Positions 6,366 to 58,622 of a stretch of DNA of 64,000 nucleotides are shown piece after piece. The notes below the pieces were generated by a model. That model did not search any database, was not told the DNA's origin, and saw nothing but the letters and a program-made list of their open reading frames with translations. The DNA comes from an uncultured Thermotogaceae bacterium (GTDB taxonomy: Bacteria; Thermotogota; Thermotogae; MWEM01): the NCBI GenBank assembly GCA_964566085.1, contig CAZMHO010000001.1, positions 3,887 to 67,886 of the forward strand, written 5' to 3'. The translations under genes and the position numbers were made by a program. Position 1 is the stretch's first letter. Every line of letters begins with the position of its first letter.

Positions 6366-6941
6366 TCACAACTTGATCATGCCGCTGAACCCCATAAAGG
6401 CCATCGACATGAGTCCCGCCGTAACCAAAGCGCCGGAAAACCCTTTGAAAGGTTCCGGAATTTCCGCCAAGTCCATTTGCTCCCGAATACCTGCGAAAAG
6501 AATCATGGACATTCCATACCCAACACCGGCTCCCAACGAGTTAAAAACCGTTTCAAGCAGCGAATAATGGCTCTGTACGTTAATGAGGGCCAGACCGAGG
6601 ATGGCGCAGTTCGTGGTAATGAGCGGCAGATAGATACCTAAAGCTTGATACAAAGCCGGCGAGCTTTTCTTCAAGAATATTTCCACGAACTGAACCAGGA
6701 CGGCGATGACGAGGATAAAGACGATGGTGGTTAAAAAACCGATTCCCAAAGCCAACAATAACCCGTTCAGCAACCAGGTGATAATGCTGGCCAGCATCAT
6801 GACGAAGATGACTGCCATTGTCATACCTGCCGCCGTGTCTATCTTTTTCGTGACACCTAAGAACGGGCAGATTCCCAGGAATTTTTGGAGCACGAAATTA
6901 TTAACAAGAATGGCCGCGAAGAAGATCATAAAGACTTTCAT
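6366..6941 (-). CDS. rnfA: Rnf electron-transport complex subunit A
   Basis: Polytopic membrane protein; ILVNNFVLQKFLGICPFLGV is the RnfA/NqrE signature. Confidence 0.85.
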   Translation of the reverse strand: MKVFMIFFAAILVNNFVLQKFLGICPFLGVTKKIDTAAGMTMAVIFVMMLASIITWLLNGLLLALGIGFLTTIVFILVIAVLVQFVEIFLKKSSPALYQALGIYLPLITTNCAILGLALINVQSHYSLLETVFNSLGAGVGYGMSMILFAGIREQMDLAEIPEPFKGFSGALVTAGLMSMAFMGFSGMIKL

Positions 6942-7624
6942 GCTTTCTCACCCGCCTGAACCGCTTTTAACGCTTCGGCTCTCTTTTTCTCCGCTTTCCT
7001 TCTTTCGATCCCGATCCAGTTAAAGAGCGCAAGTAAAAGACCCAGCGTTATGAAAGCGCCGGGAGGAAGGATCACAAGGAAAATTCGAAAGGCTTCTCCC
7101 CAAACGGTCACGCCGAAGACCGTTCCATTACCCAACAGTTCTCGGATCGATCCGACGAGTACTAACGCGCCGATGAATCCGATACCGTTTCCGATGCCAT
7201 CCAAAACGGAGTCGGCGACTTTGTTCTTGCTGGCGAACTGCTCCGCGCGCGCCATAATGATGCAGTTGACGACGATCAGCGGAATAAAGATACCGAGCGT
7301 TTTCCAAAGTTCGTAGGTGAAGGCATGCATCAATAGATCGATGATCGTGACAAAGCCGGCGATGATGATGACAAAAACGGGAATCCGGATTTTATCTGGG
7401 ATCCATTTCCTTACCAGGGATAACATAACATTTGACATCACTAAAACGAAGAGCGTGGCGACGCCCATTCCCAACCCGTTTATCGCGCTGGTCGTCGTCG
7501 CCAGCGTCGGACACATGCCGATTACTTGGATAAAGACCGGATTGTTCGCTATAACGCCGTCGGTGAAGACAGAAAAGTCAACGGTTTTTTTTCGCGGCGC
7601 GGAATTCAACGTTTTGTCTGCCAT
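6938..7624 (-). CDS. rnfE: Rnf complex subunit E
   Basis: ANNPVFIQVIGMCPTLATT is the RnfE/NqrD signature. Probable start is MADKT (ATG overlapping the rnfG stop as TAATG). Confidence 0.85.
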   Translation of the reverse strand: MADKTLNSAPRKKTVDFSVFTDGVIANNPVFIQVIGMCPTLATTTSAINGLGMGVATLFVLVMSNVMLSLVRKWIPDKIRIPVFVIIIAGFVTIIDLLMHAFTYELWKTLGIFIPLIVVNCIIMARAEQFASKNKVADSVLDGIGNGIGFIGALVLVGSIRELLGNGTVFGVTVWGEAFRIFLVILPPGAFITLGLLLALFNWIGIERRKAEKKRAEALKAVQAGEKA

Positions 7625-8340
7625 TATTCGACACCCCATTCTGCGTTTAGGTACTCGGTCATTGTATTAATCGCGTTCGCTACGGCGCGGGGCGTGATGG
7701 TTGCGCCGGTCATCAGATCGCTAACATAGACGACCCCGTCTTTTTTTGACCCGATTATCGCCTCTGGAGAAGATAGGGAACCGATTCCCGCGTCTTTATC
7801 CACTTTCAGCCCCTTGATCAGACTATCGGAAGAAAAGTCGAAGAACCGTTCTTTAACTCTTTGTTCGGAGATTTTCGCGCCTAAGCCTGGCGTCTCTTGT
7901 GAATAGTCCATGACCTCTAATCGGAAAAGATCAAATCCATCCCCCTCTTTTATAAAAGACGCCAGGATCTTCACGTTACCCCCGTATCCGGAAGCCGCGC
8001 CGGATACAATCGCGATCTCCTTGCCCTCGTTTGAAAGGATATGGTAGATCGGATTATAGATGAGCCCTTTCCAATCGGAAGAGGAAAACATCGTTTCCTT
8101 ATCGGTCTTTCGCCAAACCAATTTTTGCAACTGGGCTGTCGATGTCGGGATTTCCGGTTCCGGAACGATGTATTGCCCCGTGTCCGGATCGGTTAAAACC
8201 GTTTTCATCGCTCTCAACTGGTTGCTCAGATCGGCTTTTTCTATAGGAGCTTTCGTCAGTACGTAGATACCGGCTAACAGCACGCCAACGACCAGCGTAA
8301 AGGCCATCAACGTGAGACCGGTTTTGACGTAGTTACCCAT
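7624..8340 (-). CDS. rnfG: Rnf complex subunit G (FMN-binding)
   Basis: An N-terminal TM anchor and a SGATITPRAV-type covalent-FMN threonine motif (TGATITPRAV). Confidence 0.8.
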   Translation of the reverse strand: MGNYVKTGLTLMAFTLVVGVLLAGIYVLTKAPIEKADLSNQLRAMKTVLTDPDTGQYIVPEPEIPTSTAQLQKLVWRKTDKETMFSSSDWKGLIYNPIYHILSNEGKEIAIVSGAASGYGGNVKILASFIKEGDGFDLFRLEVMDYSQETPGLGAKISEQRVKERFFDFSSDSLIKGLKVDKDAGIGSLSSPEAIIGSKKDGVVYVSDLMTGATITPRAVANAINTMTEYLNAEWGVE

Positions 8341-9319
8341 TCTTCTTCACCTCCGGAGCGACGTAACCAAAAGGTTTCGGTCTGGAAATCCTGTCAATCA
8401 ACGGTTTGCATGCGTTCATGATGAGTATGGAAAAAGATACGCCTTCGGGCAGAGCGCCAAAAAACCGGATGAGCATCGTTATGATCCCACACCCGATCCC
8501 GTAGATGAAAGCGCCTTTCATCGTAGCGGGGGAAGTGACCATGTCGGTGGCCATAAACAGCGCGCCGAGGATAAGCCCTCCGCCTAACAGGTGGAAAACT
8601 GGAGAACCGAATTGGCTCGGGTTGATCAGGAAGAATAAGAAAGAGAAGAGCAAAACCGTTCCGATGTACGCAATCGGAATGATCGGATTCACGCGTTTTC
8701 TCCACAAAAGAAAGGCGAAACCGATGATTAACGCCAAAGCGCTGACTTCTCCCAGGCAGCCCTGTGTGTTCCCGATGAACATATCCAGCAATGACACCTG
8801 TTTGGCAGCTTCTTCAAAGCCTCTCTGTTTAAGGATACTCAGTGGCGTCGCGGAGGTAATCACCGTGGATACGGCGTTGTTCAGCGGAGCCCAAACCGAC
8901 ATCTGAACGGGAAAAGAGATAACAAGGAAGACGCGCCCGATGAGCGCCGGGTTGAAGGGGTTGTTTCCGATACCGCCATAGGTATGCTTCGCGATTCCGA
9001 TCGCCACGAGAACGCCGATGATCAGCAAGTACCAGGGAAAGGAAGCGCTGACGTTCATCGCCAGTAACAAACCGGTCACCGCGGCGCTGCCGTCCGGGCG
9101 GAAGTCCGTTTTTTTTCTCAAAAACCGCATAATCCCGTACTCTATCAGCTCTGCGCTTAACGCCCCGATCACACAGAGCCACAAAGCGTTCCACCCGAAG
9201 GCGTATACGGCGAAGACGACGGCTGGGATCAGAGCGATTAAAACGTCTCGCATGATTTTCGGAACCGTATCTTTGACGCGAATATGAGGCGCAGGAGAAG
9301 TGCTCAGAAACGTGGCCAT
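8333..9319 (-). CDS. rnfD: Rnf complex subunit D
   Basis: NqrB/RnfD-like polytopic membrane protein with an FMN-binding motif (GGG...ATDMVTSP). Start taken at MATFL (ATGA overlap with the rnfC stop). Confidence 0.85.
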   Translation of the reverse strand: MATFLSTSPAPHIRVKDTVPKIMRDVLIALIPAVVFAVYAFGWNALWLCVIGALSAELIEYGIMRFLRKKTDFRPDGSAAVTGLLLAMNVSASFPWYLLIIGVLVAIGIAKHTYGGIGNNPFNPALIGRVFLVISFPVQMSVWAPLNNAVSTVITSATPLSILKQRGFEEAAKQVSLLDMFIGNTQGCLGEVSALALIIGFAFLLWRKRVNPIIPIAYIGTVLLFSFLFFLINPSQFGSPVFHLLGGGLILGALFMATDMVTSPATMKGAFIYGIGCGIITMLIRFFGALPEGVSFSILIMNACKPLIDRISRPKPFGYVAPEVKKNG

Positions 9320-10647
9320 TATTTCTTCCCTCCCTTTAACGTGGCATGGAGTTTTTTCGCCAGTTTGAAATGCTTCACGTGTTCGATCTTCGACGGGCAG
9401 ACGTATGCGCAGCTTCCGCATTCGCAACAATTGAGCACCCCTTGCTCATAAGCCTCGTCGAACTTCTTGGCTTTGACCAGTTTCACCAGGCGATTCGGCT
9501 CCAGCCTGAGCGAGCAGGCCATAATACACCTTCCGCAATTGATACACGTCATCTCTTTGATCTCTGACACCATCTTCCCGGGTAGGGCCAGGATGCCGGA
9601 AGTCCCTTTCATCACCGGAATTGTTAAGTCCTTAACGGGAATACCCATCATCGGTCCTCCGAGAATCACCTTCCCGCCCCCTTCTTTTAGTCCGCCCGCG
9701 AGATCGATAATGCTTTGGATCGGGGTGCCGATTCGGACCCAATAGTTCCCAGGATGAGAGATTCCTTCCCCTGTGATCGTGAGGCCGCGTTCATAAAGCG
9801 GTTTCCCTTTCACAACCGCTTCATAGATCGCGTAAGCGGTCGCGACGTTATGGACGATTACTCCGATATGAATCGGGAATCCGCCGACTGGAACCTTTCG
9901 TCGAGTGATCGCATAGACCAGTTGTTTTTCTCCGCCTTGGGGGTATTTGGTTTTCAACAGGACCGGTTCGATCCGATCATTTTGGAACTTCTTTAGGGAT
10001 TCATAGGCTTCGATTTTATTGTCTTCGATTCCGATATACCCTTTTTGCGCGCCACAGACTTTCAAAAGGATTTCAAGACCGGCGACGACCTCTGCCGCGC
10101 GCTCGAGCATCAACCGGCCGTCGATTGTGAGGTAAGGCTCGCATTCCGCACCATTGAGGATGACATAATCGACGGCCTTCTTCATGGCTTCGACATATTT
10201 GAAGTGAGAAGGGAAGGTCGCGCCCCCCAATCCGACGATTCCGGCTTCTTTGATGCGTTCATACAAAAGCGTTTGGCTTTTTTCTTTATCGTAAGCCCTC
10301 CAATCGGTCAGAGGTTTGAGAAAATCGATTTGGTCCGTTTCGCTTTCGATAACGAACAATTCTTCAGGTTTCTGAGTGATCGGGTGCATCACCTTTTTGA
10401 TATCCGAGACAATACCCGTTACGGGCGAATGAAGCGGTACAGAGATAGGGTCCTGCGCTTCGGCGATCTTTTGTCCCGTTTTTACCGAATCGCCTTTTTT
10501 CACCAAAGCGGCGGGGGGTTTTCCGGTGTTTTGGTTAACGAACAGGTAAATGGTTTTCGGAACTGAAATTTCTTGAATAGGCTGGTTTTTCGCCAATTCT
10601 TTACGTTCAGGAGGATGTATTCCTCCGCTGAAAGATAGAATTGCCAA
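9319..10647 (-). CDS. rnfC: Rnf complex subunit C (NADH-binding, 2x[4Fe-4S])
   Basis: Two CxxCxxCxxxCP ferredoxin motifs (CINCGRCIMAC, CCECGSCAYVCP) and a SLBB/NADH-binding N-terminal region. Confidence 0.85.
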   Translation of the reverse strand: MAILSFSGGIHPPERKELAKNQPIQEISVPKTIYLFVNQNTGKPPAALVKKGDSVKTGQKIAEAQDPISVPLHSPVTGIVSDIKKVMHPITQKPEELFVIESETDQIDFLKPLTDWRAYDKEKSQTLLYERIKEAGIVGLGGATFPSHFKYVEAMKKAVDYVILNGAECEPYLTIDGRLMLERAAEVVAGLEILLKVCGAQKGYIGIEDNKIEAYESLKKFQNDRIEPVLLKTKYPQGGEKQLVYAITRRKVPVGGFPIHIGVIVHNVATAYAIYEAVVKGKPLYERGLTITGEGISHPGNYWVRIGTPIQSIIDLAGGLKEGGGKVILGGPMMGIPVKDLTIPVMKGTSGILALPGKMVSEIKEMTCINCGRCIMACSLRLEPNRLVKLVKAKKFDEAYEQGVLNCCECGSCAYVCPSKIEHVKHFKLAKKLHATLKGGKK

Positions 10648-10669: not shown

Positions 10670-11695
10670 CTATTTCAAGAATTTGCTTGTGAATGAATGG
10701 ACCATTATCTGGTATTTCTCCAAATTGAAAGCGGTAAACTCGGCATTATGGCTTTGGAAATCGATTTTTTTAAGCTCCGACAGTGCTCCCCAAACTTCCA
10801 TGCGATTGAAATCGCTATAAAAGGCCCGGTACGTTTTAAAATCCCGCAAAAACGCCTTCGCCTTGAAACTCGAGCGCGTGACAAAGGGTATCCCGAAATA
10901 CGAAGCCACGATGACTCCGTGCAGTCGTTCCGTGATGATGAGCGAACACGAGGCGATATCATCGATCAACTGGCCCCCTGCCGTTTGCGGAATGCGCACA
11001 GTAAAATACTTGGACAGAGCCGAAGCGTTCTGTTCCGCCAGTCTCAACTCTTCTTTGGGAAAGGAAACAAGCAGGTCGATCGCCTTGAACCCCTCGATCC
11101 TTAACGGTTCGATGAATTCCTCGATCGCTTTGACCGGGTATTTGAGCATCATACCGATCTTTTGAGGGTTTGCTCGGATTTTCTCTCGGCTGGAAAGAAT
11201 ACCGTAAGCCAAATCGGATCCTCTGGAATGACGGCTCGAAAAATGGGCTGCGTACCGAGCGGAAACGGCATCCCGAAAGTAACCGGTGCAGAGGGGGTGC
11301 GCCAATAGCTTCCGAATACGGCGATAATGAGACTGGCTGTGGATACCACCGATCCCATGCCCGAGCAGATAAACGGGTTTTCTATACCGAAATGCCGTCG
11401 AGACTAGAAAATCATAGTAAGAAAAGCTCTTCCCGCTGCTCTCGTCTTGAAATATCCCGCCTCCCCCGCCGATCACGATGTCACACGCCTTTAGGGCATG
11501 TAGGATGCTTAATAGCGAATTTCTTGGGATTTGTTTGATTCTTAATCCGAATACTTTACGAGAGCCTTTTTGAGGGAACAGCATATCGATGCGATCAACG
11601 GGAAGATCTTTTAGAAGCTTTTGCGCGCTTCTCAACAAGAGTTCGTCCCCGAAGTTCTCAAACCCGTAGTAACCGAATAAAAATACCCGAACCAA
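10670..11695 (-). CDS. Polysaccharide pyruvyl transferase (CsaB-like)
   Basis: YYGFENFGDELLL at the N-terminus and GGGGIFQD are PS_pyruv_trans motifs. TTG start with a strong RBS GAGGGGGAG. Confidence 0.6.
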   Translation of the reverse strand: MVRVFLFGYYGFENFGDELLLRSAQKLLKDLPVDRIDMLFPQKGSRKVFGLRIKQIPRNSLLSILHALKACDIVIGGGGGIFQDESSGKSFSYYDFLVSTAFRYRKPVYLLGHGIGGIHSQSHYRRIRKLLAHPLCTGYFRDAVSARYAAHFSSRHSRGSDLAYGILSSREKIRANPQKIGMMLKYPVKAIEEFIEPLRIEGFKAIDLLVSFPKEELRLAEQNASALSKYFTVRIPQTAGGQLIDDIASCSLIITERLHGVIVASYFGIPFVTRSSFKAKAFLRDFKTYRAFYSDFNRMEVWGALSELKKIDFQSHNAEFTAFNLEKYQIMVHSFTSKFLK

Positions 11696-16015: not shown

Positions 16016-16783
16016 GTGGTCAGAGGAATCTATACAGCCGTTATGGGAATGCTTGTCGATCAGGCAATCGTGGATAACGCCTCCAACAATCTTGCCAACG
16101 TGGATACAACCGGTTTCAAACGGGACACCCAAGCTTTCCGGTCTTATCTTCAGCACGAAATCCTACGGATCGAAGCGGAAGACGGCCGCCAAAAACGGAC
16201 GCCTCTTGGAACGCTCGAACGCGGCGTGACCTTGGACGAAGTCCGTACCGATCAGTCCCAAGGCGCTGTCGACATGACCGAAGTGAATACCGACTTCGCG
16301 ATCGACGGAGAAGGTTTCTTCGCGATTCGAAGGCCGAACGGGGAGGTTTACTATACTCGAAATGGGAACGCTAAAATCAACGTGCAGGGAATCCTTGTAA
16401 ACCATAATAACGATCCATTCCTGAATGATGCCGGAGAAACGATTCCGTTTACCGCGTTCTCCCTTGTCGACAATCAAGGCAATATCCTCCAGGACGGCGT
16501 GATCCAAGGGAGATTAGGCCTCTATTCTTTTGAATCCGCCCGTCACCTTGAGAAAGTAGGATACACCCTATATAAACCCACCCCGCGCTCCGGGGAACCG
16601 CAGGCGGATTTTGAAAGCGCGGTTTATCAAGGATACCAGGAAAAGGCCACCGTCAACGCCATAAGCGAAATGGTCACGTTAATCGCCGCGCAACGGCACT
16701 TCGATATCGCCCAAAAGGTGATCACGACGGAAGATCAACTTCTGGACGCGGCGATTAACAAGGTCGGGACGACCCGTTCTTAG
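16016..16783 (+). CDS. Flagellar basal-body rod protein (FlgF/FlhO-like)
   Basis: N-terminal IYTAVMGM...NNLANVDTTGFK and C-terminal ISEMVTLIAAQRHFDIAQKVITTEDQLLD are flagellar rod family motifs. GTG start with RBS GGGAGGA. Confidence 0.75.
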   Translation: MVRGIYTAVMGMLVDQAIVDNASNNLANVDTTGFKRDTQAFRSYLQHEILRIEAEDGRQKRTPLGTLERGVTLDEVRTDQSQGAVDMTEVNTDFAIDGEGFFAIRRPNGEVYYTRNGNAKINVQGILVNHNNDPFLNDAGETIPFTAFSLVDNQGNILQDGVIQGRLGLYSFESARHLEKVGYTLYKPTPRSGEPQADFESAVYQGYQEKATVNAISEMVTLIAAQRHFDIAQKVITTEDQLLDAAINKVGTTRS

Positions 16784-16838
16784 AGCTGAACGGAACTGAG
16801 TTAGAAATAAGGAATAAATATCTGAAAGAGGTGAGATT

Positions 16839-17633
16839 ATGATAACAGCCTTGTACAGCGGCGCGACCGGAATGACCGGTCAACAGCACAAGCTCGATAC
16901 GATCTCCAACAATCTGGCCAATACGGATACGACCGGTTTCAAGCGGGTGCGGACGGAGTTCGTCGATCTGTTTTATCAGTATTCTCAGAACGCGGGAGTT
17001 CCGGTGCTGGCGCAAACCTCTTCGTTGCCTTCCGGGGTGTACACCGGTTTGGGATCACGAGTAGCGGCGACGACCCGTATCTTTACGGAAGGGAACATCG
17101 AAGAGACGGGCAGCCAACTCGATGTGGCGATTTCGGGTGACGGGTTTATGCAAGTTCAGCTTCAGGACGGAACGACGGCATATACCCGCGACGGCGCGTT
17201 TAAGCTTGACAACGAAGGCGTTCTCGTACTCAATACCGGTTATCCGATCATCAACGAAACGATTATCGTTCCGACGGAAGCTGTAGCGATACAAGTCGCT
17301 TCCGACGGCACCGTTGCGGCAGTCTTCGCTGACGATACACTCGAGGTCTTAGGCCAGATACAACTCGTTAGATTTATCAACCCGACGGGCCTCGATGCGC
17401 TCGGGAATAACTTATACCGCGCGACTCCCGCTTCCGGAGAACCTCAGGAAGGTATCGCCAATCAGGATGGATTCGGGTCGTTCATACAGGGATATTTGGA
17501 AAAGTCGAATGTGAACGCTGTACGGGAAATGGTCAGTATGATCACTTCGCAACGCGCGTACGAGCTCAACTCCCGCTCTATCCAAACCGCGGATGATATG
17601 TTGAGAACGGTGTACGGATTGAAACGGAGCTAA
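16839..17633 (+). CDS. flgG: Flagellar basal-body rod protein FlgG (FlhP-like)
   Basis: ALYSGATGMTGQQ...SNNLANTDTTGFK and C-terminal NVNAVREMVSMITSQRAYELNSRSIQTADDML; RBS GAGGTGAG. Confidence 0.8.
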   Translation: MITALYSGATGMTGQQHKLDTISNNLANTDTTGFKRVRTEFVDLFYQYSQNAGVPVLAQTSSLPSGVYTGLGSRVAATTRIFTEGNIEETGSQLDVAISGDGFMQVQLQDGTTAYTRDGAFKLDNEGVLVLNTGYPIINETIIVPTEAVAIQVASDGTVAAVFADDTLEVLGQIQLVRFINPTGLDALGNNLYRATPASGEPQEGIANQDGFGSFIQGYLEKSNVNAVREMVSMITSQRAYELNSRSIQTADDMLRTVYGLKRS

Positions 17634-17673: not shown

Positions 17674-19401
17674 ATGAATATGATCGGAGCTTTGTACAGC
17701 GGATTAAGCGGACTGCTCAACTTTCAGAAAGCGATAGACGTAACCAGCAATAATTCCGCCAACGTCGATACGATTGCTTACAAATACTCGCGGGTGACGT
17801 TCAAAACCGCGATCGAGTATATGTTAACAGGTTCTTCCAGCGCGAAAATCGGGACGGGTACCATGCTGAATACGATCGACCGGAACATGGCGCAGGGCCC
17901 GATCGAAAACACGGGACGATACAGCGATTTGGCGATTGCAGGGAGCGGCTTCTTCGCAGCGGCGGATTTTCGGAGGAATACTATCGGCGATCTCGTAAAG
18001 ATGAACAGCTACCTCACACGGGTGGGCAAGTTCGAAGTGCTTTCGAATCTCAACCTCGTCCAGGGAGACGTAGGGTTGCACATCTTGGGTATTCCTTCAA
18101 CAATCGTTAACGGAGATATTACGAAAGGTTCGATTCCCGATCCTGAAACGATGATTGGGATGAGTCCGGAAGAAAAAGCCGCATTCTTCGACAGCCTGGA
18201 GCTCATTGACCTGACCGATTTCAGATCGATGAGCGGAAAAGCGACCAGCGCATTCGAAATCTTCGGAACAATAGCGACGGAAGTAGGCCCCCAACCGCAC
18301 GTGTTTGAACTCTCATCAGCCGCCGATCCGCGTATCACCTATAAAGTGAGGATGACCTTCGATCGTCTGGCGGATGATCTATCCACGGTATTCGGAGATG
18401 AAAAGGCTTTCCATTGGCGCTTGGAAGTGATCGAATGGTCGCAAGGTGGGAACGAGCGGCCGCCAATCACGGGTGACAATGGTACGATCGCCTTCAATAA
18501 AGCCGGCAACATCTCTCTCTTGAACGGCGGAGCCGGAGAGATTCTATCCTTCGACATCAGCGGAGAGACCTTCAAGTTTTCTAAAGCCGAATTACTCAAT
18601 GCGGTTAACTATAAAGACCCGTCCGCACAAGTCGTCGATACCTTCTACAACGGTTCTGGAGAGGTTGTCAAAGACGGAATCATCTTCGAAAAACTTTCGC
18701 GAGGGACCTGGCTCTTTCGTCCGGCGCAAAGCGACGCGAAGATAGCGGCGACTTCCTTCATCGGTGAAAGCGGCGCGGAGTACGCTTTTGAAGATGAAGA
18801 ACTGAACCTGTTGGGGGGCATCCTCAAGTTCGACGAAAACGGCAGATATGAAAGCCTTTCGCTGATGAGATCGGACGGGACTCTGATTCCGGATGTTCCG
18901 AAGCAGATACAGTGGTCGCTTTTGGACGGAACCCAGCAGTCGATGACGATCAACTTCCGCAATATTCTATCTGGCGGCGGCGTCCAAAACGATCTGCAGC
19001 TTCTCCAAGACGGCGGGCGGGCTACCGGGAGTCTCCGGGGCTTGGAGTTCGACAACTCGGGATATCTCATCGGCTCCTACTCGAATCAAAAAACCGCAAC
19101 CTTAGCGGTTCTCCCGCTTATTCAGATGCGCGTGCCGGAAGCCCTATCCGTTTCGAATCTTTACAGCACGGCTTATAATTTCGATCCTGGTATCCAAGCG
19201 AACAACTTCACAGGCGTCTTTGAAGCGGGAAACGGCGGAACCGGTCTTATCGAACCTTACTCTCTGGAGTATTCAAATGTGGAGACCGCGAAAGAGATGA
19301 CCCGCCTGATTATTTATCAAAGGGCGCTACAACTCAATGCCCGTTCGGTTACGACAGCGGATGCGATCTTGCAGCAAGCCTATGAACTCAAACGCTCTTA
19401 A
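17674..19401 (+). CDS. Flagellar hook-family protein (FlgE-like, 575 aa)
   Basis: N-terminal ALYSGLSGLLNFQKAIDVTSNNSANVDT and C-terminal NVETAKEMTRLIIYQRALQLNARSVTTADAILQ flagellar hook/rod termini, with a long central domain. FlgE versus FlgK cannot be settled by eye. Confidence 0.6.
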   Translation: MNMIGALYSGLSGLLNFQKAIDVTSNNSANVDTIAYKYSRVTFKTAIEYMLTGSSSAKIGTGTMLNTIDRNMAQGPIENTGRYSDLAIAGSGFFAAADFRRNTIGDLVKMNSYLTRVGKFEVLSNLNLVQGDVGLHILGIPSTIVNGDITKGSIPDPETMIGMSPEEKAAFFDSLELIDLTDFRSMSGKATSAFEIFGTIATEVGPQPHVFELSSAADPRITYKVRMTFDRLADDLSTVFGDEKAFHWRLEVIEWSQGGNERPPITGDNGTIAFNKAGNISLLNGGAGEILSFDISGETFKFSKAELLNAVNYKDPSAQVVDTFYNGSGEVVKDGIIFEKLSRGTWLFRPAQSDAKIAATSFIGESGAEYAFEDEELNLLGGILKFDENGRYESLSLMRSDGTLIPDVPKQIQWSLLDGTQQSMTINFRNILSGGGVQNDLQLLQDGGRATGSLRGLEFDNSGYLIGSYSNQKTATLAVLPLIQMRVPEALSVSNLYSTAYNFDPGIQANNFTGVFEAGNGGTGLIEPYSLEYSNVETAKEMTRLIIYQRALQLNARSVTTADAILQQAYELKRS

Positions 19402-45166: not shown

Positions 45167-47422
45167 TCACTGGACGATATGAATCTTCCAGTTCTCCGCT
45201 TCAGTTTGGTTTTCCGTTGTGCAGTTCTTCTCCGTTTGGGTTATCGTAAAGTAAGTCCGAAAGGACGTCGTCGCCCCGAATGAGGTTGCGGGGATGAGGC
45301 CGGTGCGGAATAAAACCTTTCCGTCGTACCGATAAACCTCCTCCAACGGATAGGATGTGGCGCCGGTCTGACCTTCTACGGTCACTTCGCCGATTAATAC
45401 CACACCCGGACGCCATTCTTCCACTTCCGATTCGATAATCACGTAATGAGTCGGGGAGATGTAAAGCTCATTGCCGGGGGGTACTTGAAGGAGGCCGTTT
45501 CCGCGGTGATCTGTAATGATCAGGTTTCTCCCTCTCATAATCGGTAAGAGAAACCCGTAGTTGAAATCGACCGGTTCTTCCTTTCCAAGAAGCAATACCC
45601 GAGCGCCTATCTGTTTAGAGGCGTCCGAAACCCGCACAGGAAGATAGCAGCGGATGGAACTTTCGTCTTCGAAACAGAGGCCGCCTTTTTCCGCTATCGT
45701 CTGCTCGGTCAAGTATTCTTCGCCGAGGACCATCCAAAAACGGTCGATCGCTTCCCGGTCGAGAAATCCAAAATTGATCGTTGCGCCAGAAGAATCCAAA
45801 GGTCTATCCGGCTGGTATGAGCCGTTTACGACGTTTCCGCCTCGATCCAACTTGAGCAACTGTTTGGCGGGGAGTTGATCGACGCTCATCAATCGGTTCA
45901 GAAATGCGGTCCAACCCGTTTCTTGCGCAAAAGCCAAGCGATCGTATTTATCTTTTCCGTAAACATTCCACAACCCGCCTTTTACCGAGAGCGGATACCA
46001 GAAGCTTAATCCTTTCATCTGAGCGGTATTCTTTTTTCCCATTTTCTTTCCATTTTCAAGGATATCTTCACAGAAACCGTAATGATCATTCCGAAGTACG
46101 GCTTCCCGTAATCGCTCCTCCGCTTCGCTGATGAACCCCAATAGCTGCTGAAGCATCGGCTCTTGAAGATCGTAGACGTACCCTTCTTCTCTGCTTTTGA
46201 CTTTATAGTTGTCGGTGAAGAGCGAACCGTTCAAACAGTTTTTCAAGACGGTCAACCAGGAATGTGCATCCTTGTAGTCACAGTAATCGAAGGCCAGCGT
46301 ATTCCAGTCCAGCGTAAAACCCAGGTCTTTTTTTACCGCTTCTTTCAAGAAAGCTTCGGTCAGGAGCAATGTAAGCTGATCGAAGACCTTCTTTAACGAT
46401 AGACTGAGAGACTCAAGCCGATACATTTCGATCACGGAACACCCCATCCCTTTTTGCTCCTGGATTAGGTCTTCCTCCATTCCCGCCATGGCGGCGCAGA
46501 AAAAGTCATAAGACTCTTCGGCAAAGGTCATGACATCCGGAGTGGGAAGGTTCTTCAGACACGAGAATAGCAGACCCAGTTCTGGGTAGCCGGTAGGGCT
46601 CAAGCCCTCGAATACGACAGCGGTGTCGAAATGGTCTTTCACTTGGAAGAGGTTTTCAAGCAACCCGCCGTAGGAGCCCGCAGACAGAAGCAAATCCATC
46701 TTTCTGCCTTCCAGCATCCCGTCGAATTCTAAAATAGAGGTCGTTTGGTCATAGAAAACATCTTCCGGATAAGTACCCCGGGCATCCAAGCGCCATCCGT
46801 GCGCGTCATCGATGAGGTATAAAACCATATTTTCGGACGGAAAGGCTTTCGAAGTAACTTCTAAAGCTTTTTTTACGCCTTCCGAAAAGTCAGGAGCGAA
46901 GGGACGATAGAAGGGGCGAACCGTATCTTCGGCAAGGTAATAACTCTCGAAATTTCCGGAGTCATTTTTTTGCATAAAGACCATCTCGATCGAATGGATC
47001 GGCGCGAAGTAAACGGCTAACTCCGCTTCCGTCATCGGATCGGAAAAAGAAAGCACGGTCAGATTCCAAGGCCGATCATCGAAGGGAACAACTTCCAGCG
47101 GAAGCTCCTTAAAGAAGCCGGCGTTGGCCGTAAACGTTCCTTCGTATGAGAAAGCGAGGTAATGAGGCTCAGCGTACTCGGCTTTTATTCCCCAGTCGCC
47201 GACCGACAACCCTTCCAGGCGAAAAAAACCCTCGCTATCCGTCAGCGACTCTTTGCGCACTTCCGGACTCGCGAGATTCCAAGCCGTTACGATGATATTC
47301 GGAACCGACTCTCCCAAGAGGCTAACTTTACCTTCTAAGGTGTAAAGAGAGATTACCGTACAATTTGTTAATGAAAACACGAACATCAGGACAAGGAAAA
47401 CTCCACCGATCAGTCTTTTCAT
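45167..47422 (-). CDS. Large lipoprotein (751 aa) with an N-terminal CarbopepD_reg-like domain and a possible clostripain (C11)-like peptidase core
   Basis: A lipobox (…FSLTNC), a GKVSLLG…SEGFFRLEGL beta-sandwich, and LYLIDDAHGW (His) and YDFFCAAMAG (Cys) resembling the C11 catalytic dyad contexts. The family assignment is tentative. Confidence 0.3.
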   Translation of the reverse strand: MKRLIGGVFLVLMFVFSLTNCTVISLYTLEGKVSLLGESVPNIIVTAWNLASPEVRKESLTDSEGFFRLEGLSVGDWGIKAEYAEPHYLAFSYEGTFTANAGFFKELPLEVVPFDDRPWNLTVLSFSDPMTEAELAVYFAPIHSIEMVFMQKNDSGNFESYYLAEDTVRPFYRPFAPDFSEGVKKALEVTSKAFPSENMVLYLIDDAHGWRLDARGTYPEDVFYDQTTSILEFDGMLEGRKMDLLLSAGSYGGLLENLFQVKDHFDTAVVFEGLSPTGYPELGLLFSCLKNLPTPDVMTFAEESYDFFCAAMAGMEEDLIQEQKGMGCSVIEMYRLESLSLSLKKVFDQLTLLLTEAFLKEAVKKDLGFTLDWNTLAFDYCDYKDAHSWLTVLKNCLNGSLFTDNYKVKSREEGYVYDLQEPMLQQLLGFISEAEERLREAVLRNDHYGFCEDILENGKKMGKKNTAQMKGLSFWYPLSVKGGLWNVYGKDKYDRLAFAQETGWTAFLNRLMSVDQLPAKQLLKLDRGGNVVNGSYQPDRPLDSSGATINFGFLDREAIDRFWMVLGEEYLTEQTIAEKGGLCFEDESSIRCYLPVRVSDASKQIGARVLLLGKEEPVDFNYGFLLPIMRGRNLIITDHRGNGLLQVPPGNELYISPTHYVIIESEVEEWRPGVVLIGEVTVEGQTGATSYPLEEVYRYDGKVLFRTGLIPATSFGATTSFRTYFTITQTEKNCTTENQTEAENWKIHIVQ

Positions 47423-53164: not shown

Positions 53165-53548
53165 ATGCGTTTCTGGAGCCTTTTGCTTGTATTCTTTCTC
53201 TTGGCCGTTTTTGCCGGGGCATGGACAACGGACCTTAAAGAGATAAAAACGCGATACACTCAAGAACAGATTGTCGAGTCGTTTGAAAAGGCCCGGCGGC
53301 ACGAATGGCTTGAAGAGTATCAGGAGAAAGACAACGCAATCTACCTTCTTACGAGCAAATTCAAGTACCGGACCCGGCTTCTTGACGACCAAACCCTTGT
53401 CTTCGACCAAGTTCAAAGCCGTTACGACTATGATATGCAATTCCCTTTTTGGACGATCATACTCTTGTTCATCATATCGGGGGCGGTTTTGATACTCATT
53501 TTCTTCCTGCCTTCTGATTTCAAGTTTAGAAAGAGAAAATCGCGATGA
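53165..53548 (+). CDS. Small bitopic membrane protein (127 aa)
   Basis: An N-terminal signal/anchor (MRFWSLLLVFFLLAVFAGA), a C-terminal TM, and a basic tail (FRKRKSR). Lies directly upstream of the export-protein gene. Confidence 0.35.
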   Translation: MRFWSLLLVFFLLAVFAGAWTTDLKEIKTRYTQEQIVESFEKARRHEWLEEYQEKDNAIYLLTSKFKYRTRLLDDQTLVFDQVQSRYDYDMQFPFWTIILLFIISGAVLILIFFLPSDFKFRKRKSR

Positions 53549-53606
53549 ATCAGCAGTAAAACCGTAAGACAATCGAAAGCGATTCGTGATAAAAGAGGAG
53601 AACCTT

Positions 53607-56429
53607 ATGAATAAGAGGCTTTTGGTTAGCATGTGTTTCTTCGCCATCTTTCTTTCGATTTCTGTAGGTCAGTATGCGCTCAAGCCTGGAGACCAGATCG
53701 AGGTGTACAATTATACCTACCCGGAACTCAATCAACCGGCTTTGGTGGGAAAGGATGGCTTTATCCAGCTAAAGCTGATCGGCTCTGTGAAAGCGGAGGG
53801 TATGAGCTTGGAAGAGCTGGCTGCGTTCACGAAGAGCAAACTGACGCCGTTCGCGCCGGAATCCCGGGTGACGATCCTATTGACGCAAATCTACCCGGTC
53901 AAGGCCTATATTATCGGCGAAGTGAACCAAGCGACGATTATCGATTTGACATATGAAGAGAACCCGACCCTTCTGCAGGCATTGAGTTTTTGCGGCGGAG
54001 TGAAGACGTCGGCCGATTTGAAAAATATCCTCCTTCGGCACGAGGATGGCTCCTTCGATACCGTCGATATTTCCGGAACGCTCGAATTCGGTCTTTGCGA
54101 GGACATAATCGCGATTCGCCCCGGGGATGTCATCGTGGTTCCCAGAAAATACGAACGTCGGGTTTATGTGTTCGGAAGTCTGGAGCAATCGGGAGTCATC
54201 TATTTTGAAGAAAAGGAACCGATGGTTTTGGAGGTTCTGTTATCCAAGGTTAAGTACGATCTGCGCACTTCGGAACCCACGATCTCTTTGATTCGCGACG
54301 GATACGAAACGCCCTTAACGCTTGAGGGTACCCGTTCCGTCGTAAAAAAAACCGAACTCCGAAGCAACGATATTTTGCTGATCCGTAAACTGCAGCCGAA
54401 GTATTTGTACGTGACCGGTCTATCGACCGCGAGCCGTATTGATTTCGAAAGAGAGGAAGAGATGACGCTGCAAACGTTGTTCGGAAAATTGGGGTTTGCG
54501 CCGCTCTCCGCTCTGGAGATTCGCATCACTCCGGCAAATGGGCAAGCAAGGACGTTATCTATCAACCGTTCGATACCGGTTTATCGATTCGGATCGGGAG
54601 ATATCGTCGAGTTTCCCCCTCAGAACTACGTTTACGTGAGTGGAAACGTAAGCAAAACAGGAAAGATAGATTTCTCCTACTCAGAACCGTTTACCTTGGA
54701 AACGCTTCTGGCTCTAGTGGGAGTGGGCGAAGAAGAAAGCGTCCAACTGACGGTGATCAATCCTGACGGCCGTCGTTTTCTATACCAATATCCCGAACGG
54801 AGAGAGACGCTCACACCCCTCGAACGAGGCGCTTTCGTTCAGTTCCCGTACAAACGGTACGTCTTTCTGGCCGGTTCGATTTCCGAAGGCAACGAGCGGC
54901 AACTGTATTTTCCGAACGAAGAAGAGATGACATTAAAACGCGCCTTAGCCAAAGCAAGCATCGATCTGTCCCAAAACAACTACGGCGTCACGGTGATCCG
55001 CAGTCAGGACCAATACCCGTTCGATCTGAAAAGCGCCCTTCTCTCCGAGGGGAATTTTTTGTTGGAAACGGGCGATATCCTGTTTTTTGAGAAAGAGACC
55101 GATCGGTACGTTCATCTCGTCGTTTCCGAAGGCGATAGCCGAAAGTTGCATTTCGCGCCCGAAGACCCTTTAGACCTATTCACCGTTCTCGTCAAATATG
55201 AGAAAACGGGGGAACTGACCGGTGATCAGATCAAGATCATCGATCCGTCTGGCCGCATTTTTTTGAGTTCGGTCAAAGCGGTTTTGAATCAGGAGGAAAA
55301 CTACTCCCTGTCTCCCAAAAGCCTTGTCGTAATCAACGCTAACGAACGGCGCGTTTTTGTCTTAGGAAACGTGGAGCATAGCGGAGAGATACTCTTCGGT
55401 CAAGACGAACCCTTTACCTTGACCACGCTCGTCGCCAAATGCAACCCCATCCTGAACGAAAAAACCGAGAACATCCTGGTTAAGCGTCGCGCCGGCGTAA
55501 CTGTTTTGGATCTTCAGGATGTCTTGGACGTTTCAACGGTATTCGCGTTGGAAAAAGACGCGGTCGTGTACTTTAAACCGTACGAACCAAAAGTCGTGAC
55601 GATCTTCGGACAGGTAAAAATCCCCGGACTTTTATCCTTCGGCAAACTTGAACCGCTGAATCTGATGACCGTTTTGTCTAAGGCCGGAGGGTTGCTTTCC
55701 GATGCCAGCCAACGCATCAAAGTGGTCGGGGCTGACGGCAAAAGCACTATCTATAACCTGATTTCTGAACCGAATCCGGAAAGGCTCTCGATCGCTCCCG
55801 GCAGTTATGTTGTGGTAGAGAACAATCAGGGGCAGTATATCGCCATTTTGGGAGACGTGAAGAACCCGGGGCTTCATTACCTAAAAAAAGACGAACTCTC
55901 GCTATTGGAATTGCTGAGCGCGCAAGGGGGGGTCAGCGATTGGACCCTAAACACGACATTGGAACTTACCCGCTCGTCGGGAGAGAAAGAGCTCATAAAT
56001 ATCGATCTGGACCCCTCGTCGCTAAACAAGACGAAGGTACGGCCGGGAGATACGGTTTTCGTATACCCGAGCAGCCGCTTGAAAGTCTACGTGTTCGGAG
56101 CCGTGGTGAATCCGGGCATCGTCCCCTATCGATCGAAGATGACGCTATTAGAGTCTTTGCTCTATTGTAGAGGGCCTTCTTCTTCCGCATACATGAAGAA
56201 AATTATGGTCTTCCCCGGGGGTGTCGACGCGAATCCGATCCTGTTGGACTATTCCGGATTCAGGAACGAGCGAGGCGTCGCAGACTACTTCCTGGAGCCG
56301 GGAGACGTCGTTTACGTGCCCCAAAACGCATTAGTGGAGATTAAAGATGTCGCCGGATTTCTGGGTACCATGCTGACGCTCGTGAATTCTGGGTTCACGT
56401 TAATGGATAAGCTGCAAAATTTACCGTAA
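53607..56429 (+). CDS. Wza/KpsD-like polysaccharide export protein with about 10 tandem SLBB (beta-grasp) repeats
   Basis: An N-terminal signal peptide plus a Poly_export (PES) motif LKPGDQIEV…DGFIQLKLIGSVKAEG. Repeated about 85-aa units of the form [RK]xYVxGxVxxxGxxxFxxxEPxTLxxLLxxxGG recur about 10 times. The ATG at 53607 has a strong RBS AGAGGAG; the track ORF begins at a GTG inside that RBS. Confidence 0.7.
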   Translation: MNKRLLVSMCFFAIFLSISVGQYALKPGDQIEVYNYTYPELNQPALVGKDGFIQLKLIGSVKAEGMSLEELAAFTKSKLTPFAPESRVTILLTQIYPVKAYIIGEVNQATIIDLTYEENPTLLQALSFCGGVKTSADLKNILLRHEDGSFDTVDISGTLEFGLCEDIIAIRPGDVIVVPRKYERRVYVFGSLEQSGVIYFEEKEPMVLEVLLSKVKYDLRTSEPTISLIRDGYETPLTLEGTRSVVKKTELRSNDILLIRKLQPKYLYVTGLSTASRIDFEREEEMTLQTLFGKLGFAPLSALEIRITPANGQARTLSINRSIPVYRFGSGDIVEFPPQNYVYVSGNVSKTGKIDFSYSEPFTLETLLALVGVGEEESVQLTVINPDGRRFLYQYPERRETLTPLERGAFVQFPYKRYVFLAGSISEGNERQLYFPNEEEMTLKRALAKASIDLSQNNYGVTVIRSQDQYPFDLKSALLSEGNFLLETGDILFFEKETDRYVHLVVSEGDSRKLHFAPEDPLDLFTVLVKYEKTGELTGDQIKIIDPSGRIFLSSVKAVLNQEENYSLSPKSLVVINANERRVFVLGNVEHSGEILFGQDEPFTLTTLVAKCNPILNEKTENILVKRRAGVTVLDLQDVLDVSTVFALEKDAVVYFKPYEPKVVTIFGQVKIPGLLSFGKLEPLNLMTVLSKAGGLLSDASQRIKVVGADGKSTIYNLISEPNPERLSIAPGSYVVVENNQGQYIAILGDVKNPGLHYLKKDELSLLELLSAQGGVSDWTLNTTLELTRSSGEKELINIDLDPSSLNKTKVRPGDTVFVYPSSRLKVYVFGAVVNPGIVPYRSKMTLLESLLYCRGPSSSAYMKKIMVFPGGVDANPILLDYSGFRNERGVADYFLEPGDVVYVPQNALVEIKDVAGFLGTMLTLVNSGFTLMDKLQNLP

Positions 56430-56453: not shown

Positions 56454-58622
56454 GTGCCTTCGTCCGAGCGCGATGAGATCTACGAAAAAGAACCGAACGA
56501 GTTAACGATAAACGATCTGTTCCGCATGTTCAAAAGGCGGATTGTGTGGTTTTTACTCGTCGTGGTCCTTACCGTTATCGCCACGATCCTCTATGCCTTC
56601 ATCTCTCCGCGGGTCTACGAGTCGAGCGTGACGATAAAACTGTCGGCCGCCTCTTCTTCCGGCATCTCTGGTTTCTTGCAGGATCTTCCTTTTGGAATCG
56701 GCGGATCTTCGAGCGGTGGCAGCATTTTAACGGAGATAGAGATGATCACGAGCAAAGGCAACATCGAAAAGGTGATCCGAAATATCGGTTTGTTGGATAT
56801 TCTGATACCGGCGGAGAAAAGAAAACCTGGAGAAGCGGAGCAGGCAATGTTCTCGCGCGCCGTAAGCGCCTTGGCGGAACAGATCAGCGTGAACCCGGTT
56901 AAGAACACCAATATCGTCAAGATTACCGTTGCCTTATCAGAAGGGGATCTCGCAGCGCGTATCGCCAATGAGTTGGCTTCGGTATACAACGAAAGTTTGT
57001 ACGATATCAACAAAACGCAAGCGAATGAAAAGCTGTCGTTCATTGAGAAGCAGCTGCCTGTGAGTAAAGCCGCTCTTGACTTCTCTATACGGAAGGTGAG
57101 AGAGTATAAGGAAGCGAAACAGATCTTTCTGATATCCGAAGAAGCGAAGGCTTTGTTAGAGGTAATCGCGGACTTCGACAAGCAGTTGAATGCAAAAAAA
57201 ATGGAATTGCGAACGACTCAGGCAGGGATTGCGGCGATCCGGGAAAAACTCTCCGCAACAAACGAAAAATTGATCTCCTCGGAAACGATCACGATCAATC
57301 CGCTTGTCAGCGAATTGCGGAGCAAGTTAACGAATCTGAATATCGAATTGGCCGCTTTGGAGAAACTCTATCCGGCCACCGATCCTCGAGTTCTACAAAA
57401 AAGGAAGTCGATCGAAGAGACTCAGAAAGAGCTATCGAAACAAGTCGTCAATATTGTCACGTCTCAGCAAAAAACAGACAACCCGATTTACGCGACGCTT
57501 ATGGGAGAGTTGGTCATGAAAGAGATCGACTATCAACTCTACGCCGCGACGATTGAAGCTATTGAAAATACCCGCAAGGAATACGACCAAAAAATGAGAC
57601 AGCTCCCCGCTCTCGAGCAGGAACTCACCGAGCTGCTCCGAGAGGAGAGCATCAACGAGCAGGTCTATGTCGCCCTCTACAAGAGTTATATCGACGCCCA
57701 GATTTCCGAAGCCGGGATCGTCAACCAAACCTATATCGTGGACGCAGCGGAACCCCCTTTGAATGCCGCGAAACCTCAAAAAAAACTCATCGTGGCGATA
57801 GGCGGGGTTTTGGGAGTATTCCTGGGCATCCTGTTCGTATTCGTTCTCGAATACCTTGAAAAACGGATTATGGATACCGAGGAGCTCGCGAAGATGACGG
57901 GGGACGCGGTCCCGATCTTCGGCTTTTTCCCGAAAACCAAAACCGGCCTTCTTCCGATTAATCCCCAGAATCCCGATCGCCTCCTCTCCGAAGCGGCTGA
58001 GACAGCCTATACGCGATTCCATTTAAGAAAACATGAACGCCCTTCGAAAGTTATCGCGATTACGAGTTCCGAGAGCAACACCGGGAGTTCTACACTTGCC
58101 TTCTACCTTGCGCAAACAATTGCTCGAAGCAGGGAACGCGTTCTCCTGATCGACGGGGCGCTACGATATACCAACCTCACGAAACGCATCGGATTGCCGA
58201 ATCACCAGACCGGCTTTTCTCAAGCCATTTCGGAGGGCTTCTCCGAACGGGTTCCTGTGGTTTCGCTACAACCTTATCTGGACTTTCTGCCGGCCGGAAA
58301 GCACGACGCGCATCCGTTGGCCCTGTTCCGAGGAAAACGGTTTGAAGAGTGGATAACCGCCATGGCGAAAGAATACGATCGAATTCTCATCGATACGCCG
58401 GCGATGAACCGGGATGTGGATACGTCCATGCTTATCGCGAGAACGGAAGGCGTTTTTTTGGTGGTCACGATTGGAAAAACCGGGAAACGCGCTTTTAGAA
58501 AGGCGCTGAACGATATTGGTTACGCGCAAATCCCTTTGTTGGGCCTTTTGGTCAATAAATGCCAAATCGGTAAAGATTTCTCCCTTCGAAAAAATGAAAA
58601 TCGATCCGAGATTCAAGCCTAA
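56454..58622 (+). CDS. Wzc/GumC-like polysaccharide co-polymerase with a degenerate BY-kinase-like ATPase domain
   Basis: A Wzz N-terminal TM, a long coiled-coil periplasmic region, a second TM (LIVAIGGVLGVFLGILFVFVL), then a CapB-like domain. The Walker A position reads ITSSESNTGSST (no Lys) and there is no C-terminal Tyr cluster. Confidence 0.65.
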   Translation: MPSSERDEIYEKEPNELTINDLFRMFKRRIVWFLLVVVLTVIATILYAFISPRVYESSVTIKLSAASSSGISGFLQDLPFGIGGSSSGGSILTEIEMITSKGNIEKVIRNIGLLDILIPAEKRKPGEAEQAMFSRAVSALAEQISVNPVKNTNIVKITVALSEGDLAARIANELASVYNESLYDINKTQANEKLSFIEKQLPVSKAALDFSIRKVREYKEAKQIFLISEEAKALLEVIADFDKQLNAKKMELRTTQAGIAAIREKLSATNEKLISSETITINPLVSELRSKLTNLNIELAALEKLYPATDPRVLQKRKSIEETQKELSKQVVNIVTSQQKTDNPIYATLMGELVMKEIDYQLYAATIEAIENTRKEYDQKMRQLPALEQELTELLREESINEQVYVALYKSYIDAQISEAGIVNQTYIVDAAEPPLNAAKPQKKLIVAIGGVLGVFLGILFVFVLEYLEKRIMDTEELAKMTGDAVPIFGFFPKTKTGLLPINPQNPDRLLSEAAETAYTRFHLRKHERPSKVIAITSSESNTGSSTLAFYLAQTIARSRERVLLIDGALRYTNLTKRIGLPNHQTGFSQAISEGFSERVPVVSLQPYLDFLPAGKHDAHPLALFRGKRFEEWITAMAKEYDRILIDTPAMNRDVDTSMLIARTEGVFLVVTIGKTGKRAFRKALNDIGYAQIPLLGLLVNKCQIGKDFSLRKNENRSEIQA

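Follow-up and report, generated by a model that had tools for sequence, protein, structure and literature searches.

An OPX (Wza-family) polysaccharide export protein of 940 amino acids (aa), encoded at positions 53607-56429 of a 64,000-nucleotide stretch of contig CAZMHO010000001.1 from an uncultured Thermotogaceae bacterium (the whole of that stretch is here called the window), carries ten bona fide SLBB beta-grasp domains in an unbroken row behind its Poly_export (PES) domain. We consider it fairly probable that this exporter is the outer-envelope component of a Wzc-coupled polysaccharide secretion system, and plausible, by analogy with Escherichia coli Wza, that it would form a conduit spanning the periplasm and the toga. 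The architecture itself is already catalogued, the exporter being a further member of a known but uncharacterised type. Its features are as follows, with the significance of each repeat in a leave-one-out search described below.

53607-56429, + strand: OPX (Wza-family) polysaccharide export gene, 940 aa (open reading frame; Pfam Poly_export, SLBB_2 and SLBB; NCBIfam)
53595-53600, + strand: ribosome-binding site GAGGAG, read from the sequence, 6 nucleotides (nt) before ATG 53607
53607-53669, + strand: signal peptide, residues 1-21 (MNKR, a hydrophobic core, then SVG before Q), no lipobox
53670-53894, + strand: Poly_export/PES domain (PF02563), residues 22-96, aligning to Wza D1
53898-54152, + strand: SLBB repeat 1, residues 98-182, aligning to Wza D2 (E 1.5e-12)
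54156-54395, + strand: SLBB repeat 2, residues 184-263 (E 3e-17)
54399-54626, + strand: SLBB repeat 3, residues 265-340 (E 1.5e-9)
54624-54854, + strand: SLBB repeat 4, residues 340-416 (E 1.1e-17)
54855-55100, + strand: SLBB repeat 5, residues 417-498 (E 3.3e-13)
55104-55346, + strand: SLBB repeat 6, residues 500-580, the most diverged unit (E 5.8e-11; lowest conservation among orthologues, 28%)
55347-55586, + strand: SLBB repeat 7, residues 581-660 (E 4e-17)
55590-55829, + strand: SLBB repeat 8, residues 662-741 (E 3.9e-16)
55833-56075, + strand: SLBB repeat 9, residues 743-823, among the best conserved
56079-56330, + strand: SLBB repeat 10, residues 825-908, among the best conserved (E 1.4e-8)
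56340-56417, + strand: C-terminal amphipathic helix, residues 912-937, present in both AlphaFold2 models and placed like the Wza D4 (Wza_C) outer-membrane helix

Ten units of 76-85 aa each come after the PES domain, joined by linkers of 0-2 residues, and align in register at a mean pairwise identity of 22%. To each we applied a hidden Markov model (HMM) built from the other nine, and every unit was recovered (E 1.4e-8 to 1.1e-17), so that each is individually significant. Neither self-BLASTP of the protein, which returned zero internal matches, nor Tandem Repeats Finder, which detected no repeats, registers the array, as is to be expected of old and diverged copies. In Pfam, PF02563 matches residues 22-91 (E 4.9e-15; 55.9 bits against a gathering cutoff of 28), SLBB_2 (PF22461) matches in six stretches (E 6e-38) and SLBB (PF10531) in four (E 5e-24). 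The count of about ten tandem SLBB repeats given in an earlier note on this DNA, made from the sequence alone, is confirmed. Several NCBIfam polysaccharide-export equivalogs match partially, all of them within the first ~260 residues.

AlphaFold2, run on the full-length monomer with an alignment of 11 sequences (mean predicted local distance difference test score 72.5; predicted template modelling score, pTM, 0.36), returned a beta-beta-alpha-beta-beta-(alpha)-beta unit ten times over, followed by the helix at 912-937. When the model was compared with the PDB using Foldseek, Wza was the top match (E 2e-16), and the runners-up were tandem beta-grasp proteins: linear tetra- and di-ubiquitin chains, the ubiquitin-like arrays of USP7, and GfcC. 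Among PDB sequences, too, Wza proteins gave the best matches (residues 18-224). The exporter falls within the SLBB superfamily as described by Burroughs et al. (2007), whose fold is kin to Nqo1/RnfC, ComEA and the C-terminal domains of transcobalamin. It also shows the features by which the OPX family is recognised, namely PES (PF02563), at least one SLBB domain after it, a signal peptide and pairing with a polysaccharide co-polymerase (PCP) gene. The description of the protein as a Wza-like exporter is supported.

The open reading frame is intact from ATG 53607 to TAA 56427-56429. We prefer this start to the in-frame GTG at 53586, chosen by some gene callers, because of the GAGGAG ribosome-binding site at 53595-53600. 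The signal peptide is the protein's sole hydrophobic segment, with a 16-residue core read from the sequence and a helix at residues 3-20 in the AlphaFold2 model; its features are those of a Sec-type signal, in keeping with the periplasmic export of OPX proteins. No lipobox was found in the exporter: VSMC at residues 7-10 misfits the pattern [LVI][ASTVI][GAS]C, and Cys10 is missing in the 81%-identical orthologue. The ratio of nonsynonymous to synonymous substitution (dN/dS) is 0.07-0.08 against orthologues at 81% and 74% identity, which indicates that the gene is under strong purifying selection. The same protein was found on many independent contigs and metagenome-assembled genomes (MAGs), the closest genomic matches being Thermotogota/Thermotogaceae MAGs from anaerobic digesters (81%, 74% and 36-38% identity). 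The toga context that had been supposed from the sequence is appropriate, the organism being a toga-bearing member of the Thermotogota.

We observed that the number of repeats differs by lineage (about 9-20) and is fixed among orthologues. All nine full-length proteins of the exporter's own group (P0001-P0003, P0005, P0036-P0039 and the window protein; 36-92% identity) hold exactly ten units, and even at 36-39% identity their repeats are one-to-one positional orthologues of those in the window. Other Thermotogota, including Thermosipho, Pseudothermotoga and Marinitoga, gave ~9-13 units in a first count and 7-12 with a stricter cut-off, and proteins of the Kosmotoga and Mesotoga type (1575-1727 aa) have 17-20. 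An exhaustive HMMER scan of 1.84 billion representatives yielded 12,396 relatives, and units were counted in the best 150 of these (50%-identity representatives): 33 of the 150 have at least 10 and six have at least 15. The counts among these 150 were obtained with an HMM trained on the window's own repeats and are lower bounds. Ten or more repeats are rare across bacteria overall and typical of Thermotogota. The rarity that the earlier note had implied does not survive at the level of the lineage, where ten-repeat Wza homologues, which that note had itself named as the observation that would overturn its case, are common.

Very long SLBB arrays with named sources come mostly from diderm Terrabacteria with OmpM-type tethers (Kosmotoga, Limnochordia, Armatimonadota), and one long-array cluster also bears the name of Acidobacteriota, outside that assemblage. 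Where a source is named, the longest proteins trace to Kosmotoga, to Limnochordia (2040-2047 aa), to a Firmicutes bin from an anaerobic digester (2313 aa) and to Armatimonadota/Acidobacteriota (~1540 aa), and a JGI entry reaches 2563 aa. The greatest lengths among multi-SLBB OPX relatives (P0043, P0045 and P0215; 2040-2563 aa) are found in Limnochordia and further diderm Firmicutes bins rather than in Thermotogota. Conservation along the exporter is uneven: identity to distant orthologues is 40% for the PES domain, 49% for repeat 9 and 47% for repeat 10, and 28-39% for repeats 1-8. When repeats 9 and 10 are compared with other OPX proteins of the Thermotogota, it is always the final two repeats there that match them best. 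This anatomy, as read from the alignments, suits a tube whose ends are conserved and whose spacer varies.

Long arrays of this kind are on record. Burroughs et al. (2007; PMC1796856) noted 1-8 SLBB repeats in polysaccharide export proteins, and Saidi et al. (2022; PMC9603273) describe Class-1 OPX proteins as Poly_export-SLBB(1-14)-Wza_C. Entries in Table S2 of the latter survey, which covers 3,662 representative genomes, give Pfam-detected SLBB numbers of 6-7 for Thermotoga (937-992 aa), 11 and 14 for Kosmotoga and 13-14 for Mesotoga, and at least four of the table's entries have at least 10 contiguous Pfam-level SLBB domains: Fimbriimonas, two Kosmotoga and one more that should be Mesotoga infera. 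The string "Thermotog" occurs zero times in the survey's main text, where the long arrays go undiscussed, and we found no paper that studies an OPX protein with ten or more SLBB domains. NCBI names the close relatives "SLBB domain-containing protein".

The Thermotogota proteins among the entries of that catalogue include those of Thermotoga naphthophila and T. petrophila (992 aa), T. profunda (937 aa), Kosmotoga olearia (1189 aa), K. pacifica (1728 aa) and Mesotoga prima and M. infera (about 1575 aa). They share with the exporter the phylum and the combination of Poly_export, a long unbroken SLBB array and a short conserved C-terminal helix, and their last two repeats and tail are homologous to its own. 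The exporter, however, is only 23-29% identical to them and falls in a distinct clade of ten-repeat proteins for which MAGs are the sole source; furthermore, the Mesotoga-type relatives of 1575 aa carry the GfcC-type domain PF06251 (precomputed domains), for which the exporter has no match. No experimental work on the catalogued Thermotogota proteins was found in the searched literature.

Immediately downstream lies the gene of the presumptive partner, and upstream that of a small membrane protein:

56454-58622, + strand: Wzc-like PCP, 722 aa, with Wzz, GNVR and P-loop domains, the kinase domain degenerate
53165-53548, + strand: small protein of 127 aa with two transmembrane segments and a LapA-type domain (PF06305, E 1.3e-6), directly upstream of the exporter

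The PCP gene begins 24 nt past the exporter's stop codon, the pairing is syntenic in relatives, and the two genes are likely to be co-transcribed. The order LapA-type protein, OPX, PCP is also seen in one relative (L001), and the LapA-type protein is possibly a third member of the operon. The PCP is of the Wzc type, not the KpsE type, with transmembrane segments at residues 25-43 and 446-464 and a C-terminal P-loop domain. Its periplasmic domain measures ~395 aa against ~373 aa in E. coli Wzc, and is thus in effect no larger, so that any extra reach must come from the OPX protein. At the positions diagnostic of bacterial tyrosine (BY) kinases, it has GSS for Walker A, DGALR for Walker A' and zero tyrosines in its last 30 residues, as compared with GKT, DCDMR and six tyrosines in E. 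coli Wzc; it lacks the BY-kinase signature, and to judge by these motifs the partner is a lineage-specific pseudokinase. A tyrosine-phosphorylation cycle is thought to drive Wza-Wzc systems. The motif losses recur in PCP orthologues at 85% and 79% identity (L001 and L003), and a 37%-identical relative from the Thermotogota (L006) has retained GKT, DLDMR and, at its end, YYYYY.

The exporter ends, beyond its last beta-strand, in an amphipathic helix of ~26 residues that is conserved across Thermotogota OPX proteins and has a hydrophobic moment of 0.36, versus 0.34 for the tail of Wza. A global hhalign alignment of the last repeat plus tail with E. coli Wza placed the repeat on Wza D2, not on D3-D4, and a profile of the tail searched against PDB sequences gave chance helical matches only (PDCD10, PsbK). 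Caps_synth_GfcC (PF06251) has no Pfam match in the exporter at E ≤ 1, and the GfcC module that follows the SLBB domains in Class-2 OPX proteins (KpsD type) is accordingly absent. Class-3 proteins (WzaX/S/B type) are recognised by having no C-terminal element and a nearby 18-stranded barrel, whereas the exporter has its helix; none of the neighbouring genes encodes a beta-barrel, a result for the locus that leaves room for a distant porin gene. Saidi et al. (2022; PMC9603273) assigned Wza_C by HHpred, in entries for Thermotoga, Kosmotoga and Mesotoga, to homologues of the exporter. Following that assignment we file the exporter as Class-1-like, a placement that is unsettled given the missing lipobox and the weak alignment of the tail to Wza_C.

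The prototype of Class 1, E. coli Wza (PDB 2J58; Wza-Wzc complex 9R60-9R69), shares with the exporter the PES and SLBB domains (phmmer E 6e-15 over residues 18-224, corresponding to D1 plus D2), a Wzc-like PCP partner, and a C-terminal amphipathic helix of similar length after the last beta-strand. It differs in having two SLBB domains where the exporter has ten; the exporter, for its part, has a signal peptide without acylation, no Pfam match to Wza_C, and a partner whose kinase domain is, from its motifs, inactive. The Class-3 protein WzaB of Myxococcus xanthus (PDB 9N9A) is a lipoprotein with one SLBB domain that works with an adjacent beta-barrel porin, in contrast to the exporter with its ten SLBB domains, its C-terminal helix, no lipobox and no adjacent barrel gene.

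In the crystal and cryo-electron microscopy structures of Wza, D1 (PES) and the SLBB domains D2 and D3 make up one ring apiece of the octamer, D1 docks on the tip of Wzc, and the D4 helices form the outer-membrane pore (PMC12819527, PMC12881504). We suggest, on this analogy, that eight copies of the exporter would assemble with each SLBB domain contributing one ring, that the PES ring would dock on the tip of the PCP octamer, and that the SLBB rings would stack into a tube of ~34-40 nm guiding the nascent glycan, while the C-terminal helices would anchor in, or penetrate, the toga. The extra rings would then be spacers bridging a periplasm whose width is several times that in E. coli, a role that would fall to them because the periplasmic domain of the PCP is not enlarged; the synthesis genes (Wzx/Wzy and glycosyltransferases) would lie elsewhere in the genome. 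The estimate of length rests on published dimensions of Wza and WzaB: the three rings of E. coli Wza project ~100 Å and the two of WzaB ~62 Å (PMC12819527), which gives 31-38 Å per ring and thus ~34-40 nm for a stack of eleven. Wza and Wzc of E. coli together form a channel 360 Å in length (PMC12881504), and replacing the 10 nm of Wza in this 36-nm channel by ~34-40 nm yields ~60-66 nm. By cryo-electron tomography, the lateral periplasm of T. maritima measures 70 +/- 10 nm and its Omp-alpha ~50 nm, and tubes ~80 nm long resembling pili or type II secretion systems also cross it (PMC10160955). On these dimensions the conduit suggested in the earlier note is plausible, though not proven.

A broader proposal, which we advance only tentatively and hold to be somewhat less probable than not, is that diderm Terrabacteria whose Omp-alpha/OmpM tethers are long (Thermotogota, Limnochordia, Armatimonadota) use the number of SLBB domains as a molecular ruler. 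Spacer rings, ten here and up to at least 20 elsewhere, would be inserted between the conserved PES ring that docks on the PCP and a conserved toga-proximal module of repeats 9 and 10 plus helix, giving an octameric conduit for glycan, 35-70 nm in length, that would match the width of the envelope, in the present case with a kinase-dead PCP and no tyrosine-phosphorylation cycle.

Several observations weigh against a Wza-like, toga-spanning channel. A pTM of 0.36 for the full-length monomer leaves the relative placement of the domains undefined, and the exporter, unlike Wza, has no N-terminal lipid anchor. At the other end of the protein, Pfam Wza_C (PF18412) finds no match in the exporter at E ≤ 1, and hhalign aligns the tail with the C-terminus of Wza co-linearly but weakly (P 0.003, probability 10%). 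An AlphaFold2 fragment of two repeats plus helix superposes on Wza over ~106 residues, roughly one domain, and the D2-D3-D4 arrangement of Wza is for that reason not demonstrated. The estimated channel of ~60-66 nm, which includes the PCP and the membranes, would reach the low end of a width measured in T. maritima, not in the window's own organism. Since the PCP lacks the Walker A lysine and the tyrosine cluster, regulation of the Wzc type cannot run as it does in E. coli. Finally, no gene for a glycosyltransferase, flippase (Wzx) or polymerase (Wzy) adjoins the OPX-PCP pair.

Part of this evidence would also suit a purely periplasmic conduit of Class-3 character, in which the helix does not cross the toga and exit is by way of a separate porin encoded elsewhere, the SLBB stack still serving as a spacer tube. 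The lack of a Pfam Wza_C match and of a lipobox and the weak profile alignment of the tail to Wza_C are what such a protein would show; most OPX proteins, moreover, have no outer-membrane-spanning helix and use Wzp-type barrels (PMC9603273), and the toga consists for the most part of beta-barrel trimers in a lattice, which leaves lipid in small patches only (PMC10160955). We nevertheless regard this alternative as unlikely, given a conserved amphipathic helix of 26 residues after the last SLBB domain, exactly at the position of Wza D4, the HHpred assignment of Wza_C to homologues in Thermotoga, Kosmotoga and Mesotoga, and a locus with no adjacent beta-barrel gene. Less probable still is that each SLBB unit binds glycan on its own and that, in place of a closed stacked tube, the units form a flexible chain that would hold, organise or chaperone polysaccharide, whether in the periplasm or at the toga. 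SLBB domains are indeed soluble-ligand- or sugar-binding modules (PMC1796856), and the low pTM, with no fixed geometry between domains, and the lesser conservation of the middle repeats are consistent with such a string, as is the enrichment of a "beta-grasp domain containing protein", of unconfirmed identity, in toga fractions of T. maritima (PMC10160955). Linkers of 0-2 residues, however, suggest a rigid, tightly packed array, the repeat number is strictly kept among orthologues, and the PES domain and PCP partner are hallmarks of a channel-forming family whose SLBB domains form rings. That the array is sequence evolving neutrally or in decay, an artefact of assembly or a reading frame called in error, for which nothing speaks beyond the departure of repeats 3, 6 and 10 from the consensus, is effectively excluded by the intact frame with its ribosome-binding site, by a dN/dS of ~0.07 and by the recurrence of the architecture on many independent contigs and MAGs. 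The toga-enriched T. maritima protein (PMC10160955) could be the orthologue of the exporter.

As annotation the exporter is routine, its type being present in a published survey and in public databases. The wider value lies in a natural experiment on how trans-envelope machines scale with the width of the envelope. The OPX channels that are known structurally all have just one or two SLBB rings, and why Thermotogota and other OmpM-tethered diderms carry 10-20 SLBB domains has apparently never been asked. If the rings do stack, no longer periplasmic conduit for glycan would be known, and repeat number would become a proxy for periplasmic width that can be read from the sequence of uncultured diderms; a kinase-dead PCP partner would in addition raise the question of gating.

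The neighbours of the exporter, PCP and LapA-type genes are housekeeping genes, and the nearest sugar-related genes lie 5-50 kb away. The rest of the 64-kb window is likewise of housekeeping character (an Rnf complex, flagellar rod, tRNA synthetases and similar). We rejected a reading of the locus as a defence system or mobile element, since its setting is chromosomal and is shared syntenically by relatives. The gene at 10670-11695 (- strand) encodes a polysaccharide pyruvyl transferase (PF04230) that is possibly CsaB-like; CsaB pyruvylates wall polymers for tethers with SLH domains such as Omp-alpha/OmpM in diderm Terrabacteria. The RnfC gene at 9319-10647 (- strand), within an Rnf operon at 6938-10647, encodes a single SLBB domain and so presents the same fold in the context of a redox enzyme. 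At 45167-47422 (- strand), a 751-aa open reading frame matches no Pfam family at E ≤ 0.001, and the orthologue at the syntenic place in L001 gives only a faint hint of Peptidase_C11. A 575-aa protein at 17674-19401 (+ strand), whose sole recognised domain is the C-terminal flagellar rod/hook motif Flg_bbr_C, is encoded directly after two FlgF/FlgG-like rod genes (16016-17633) and could, from this context, be the hook or, in a wide-periplasm organism, an elongated part of the rod.

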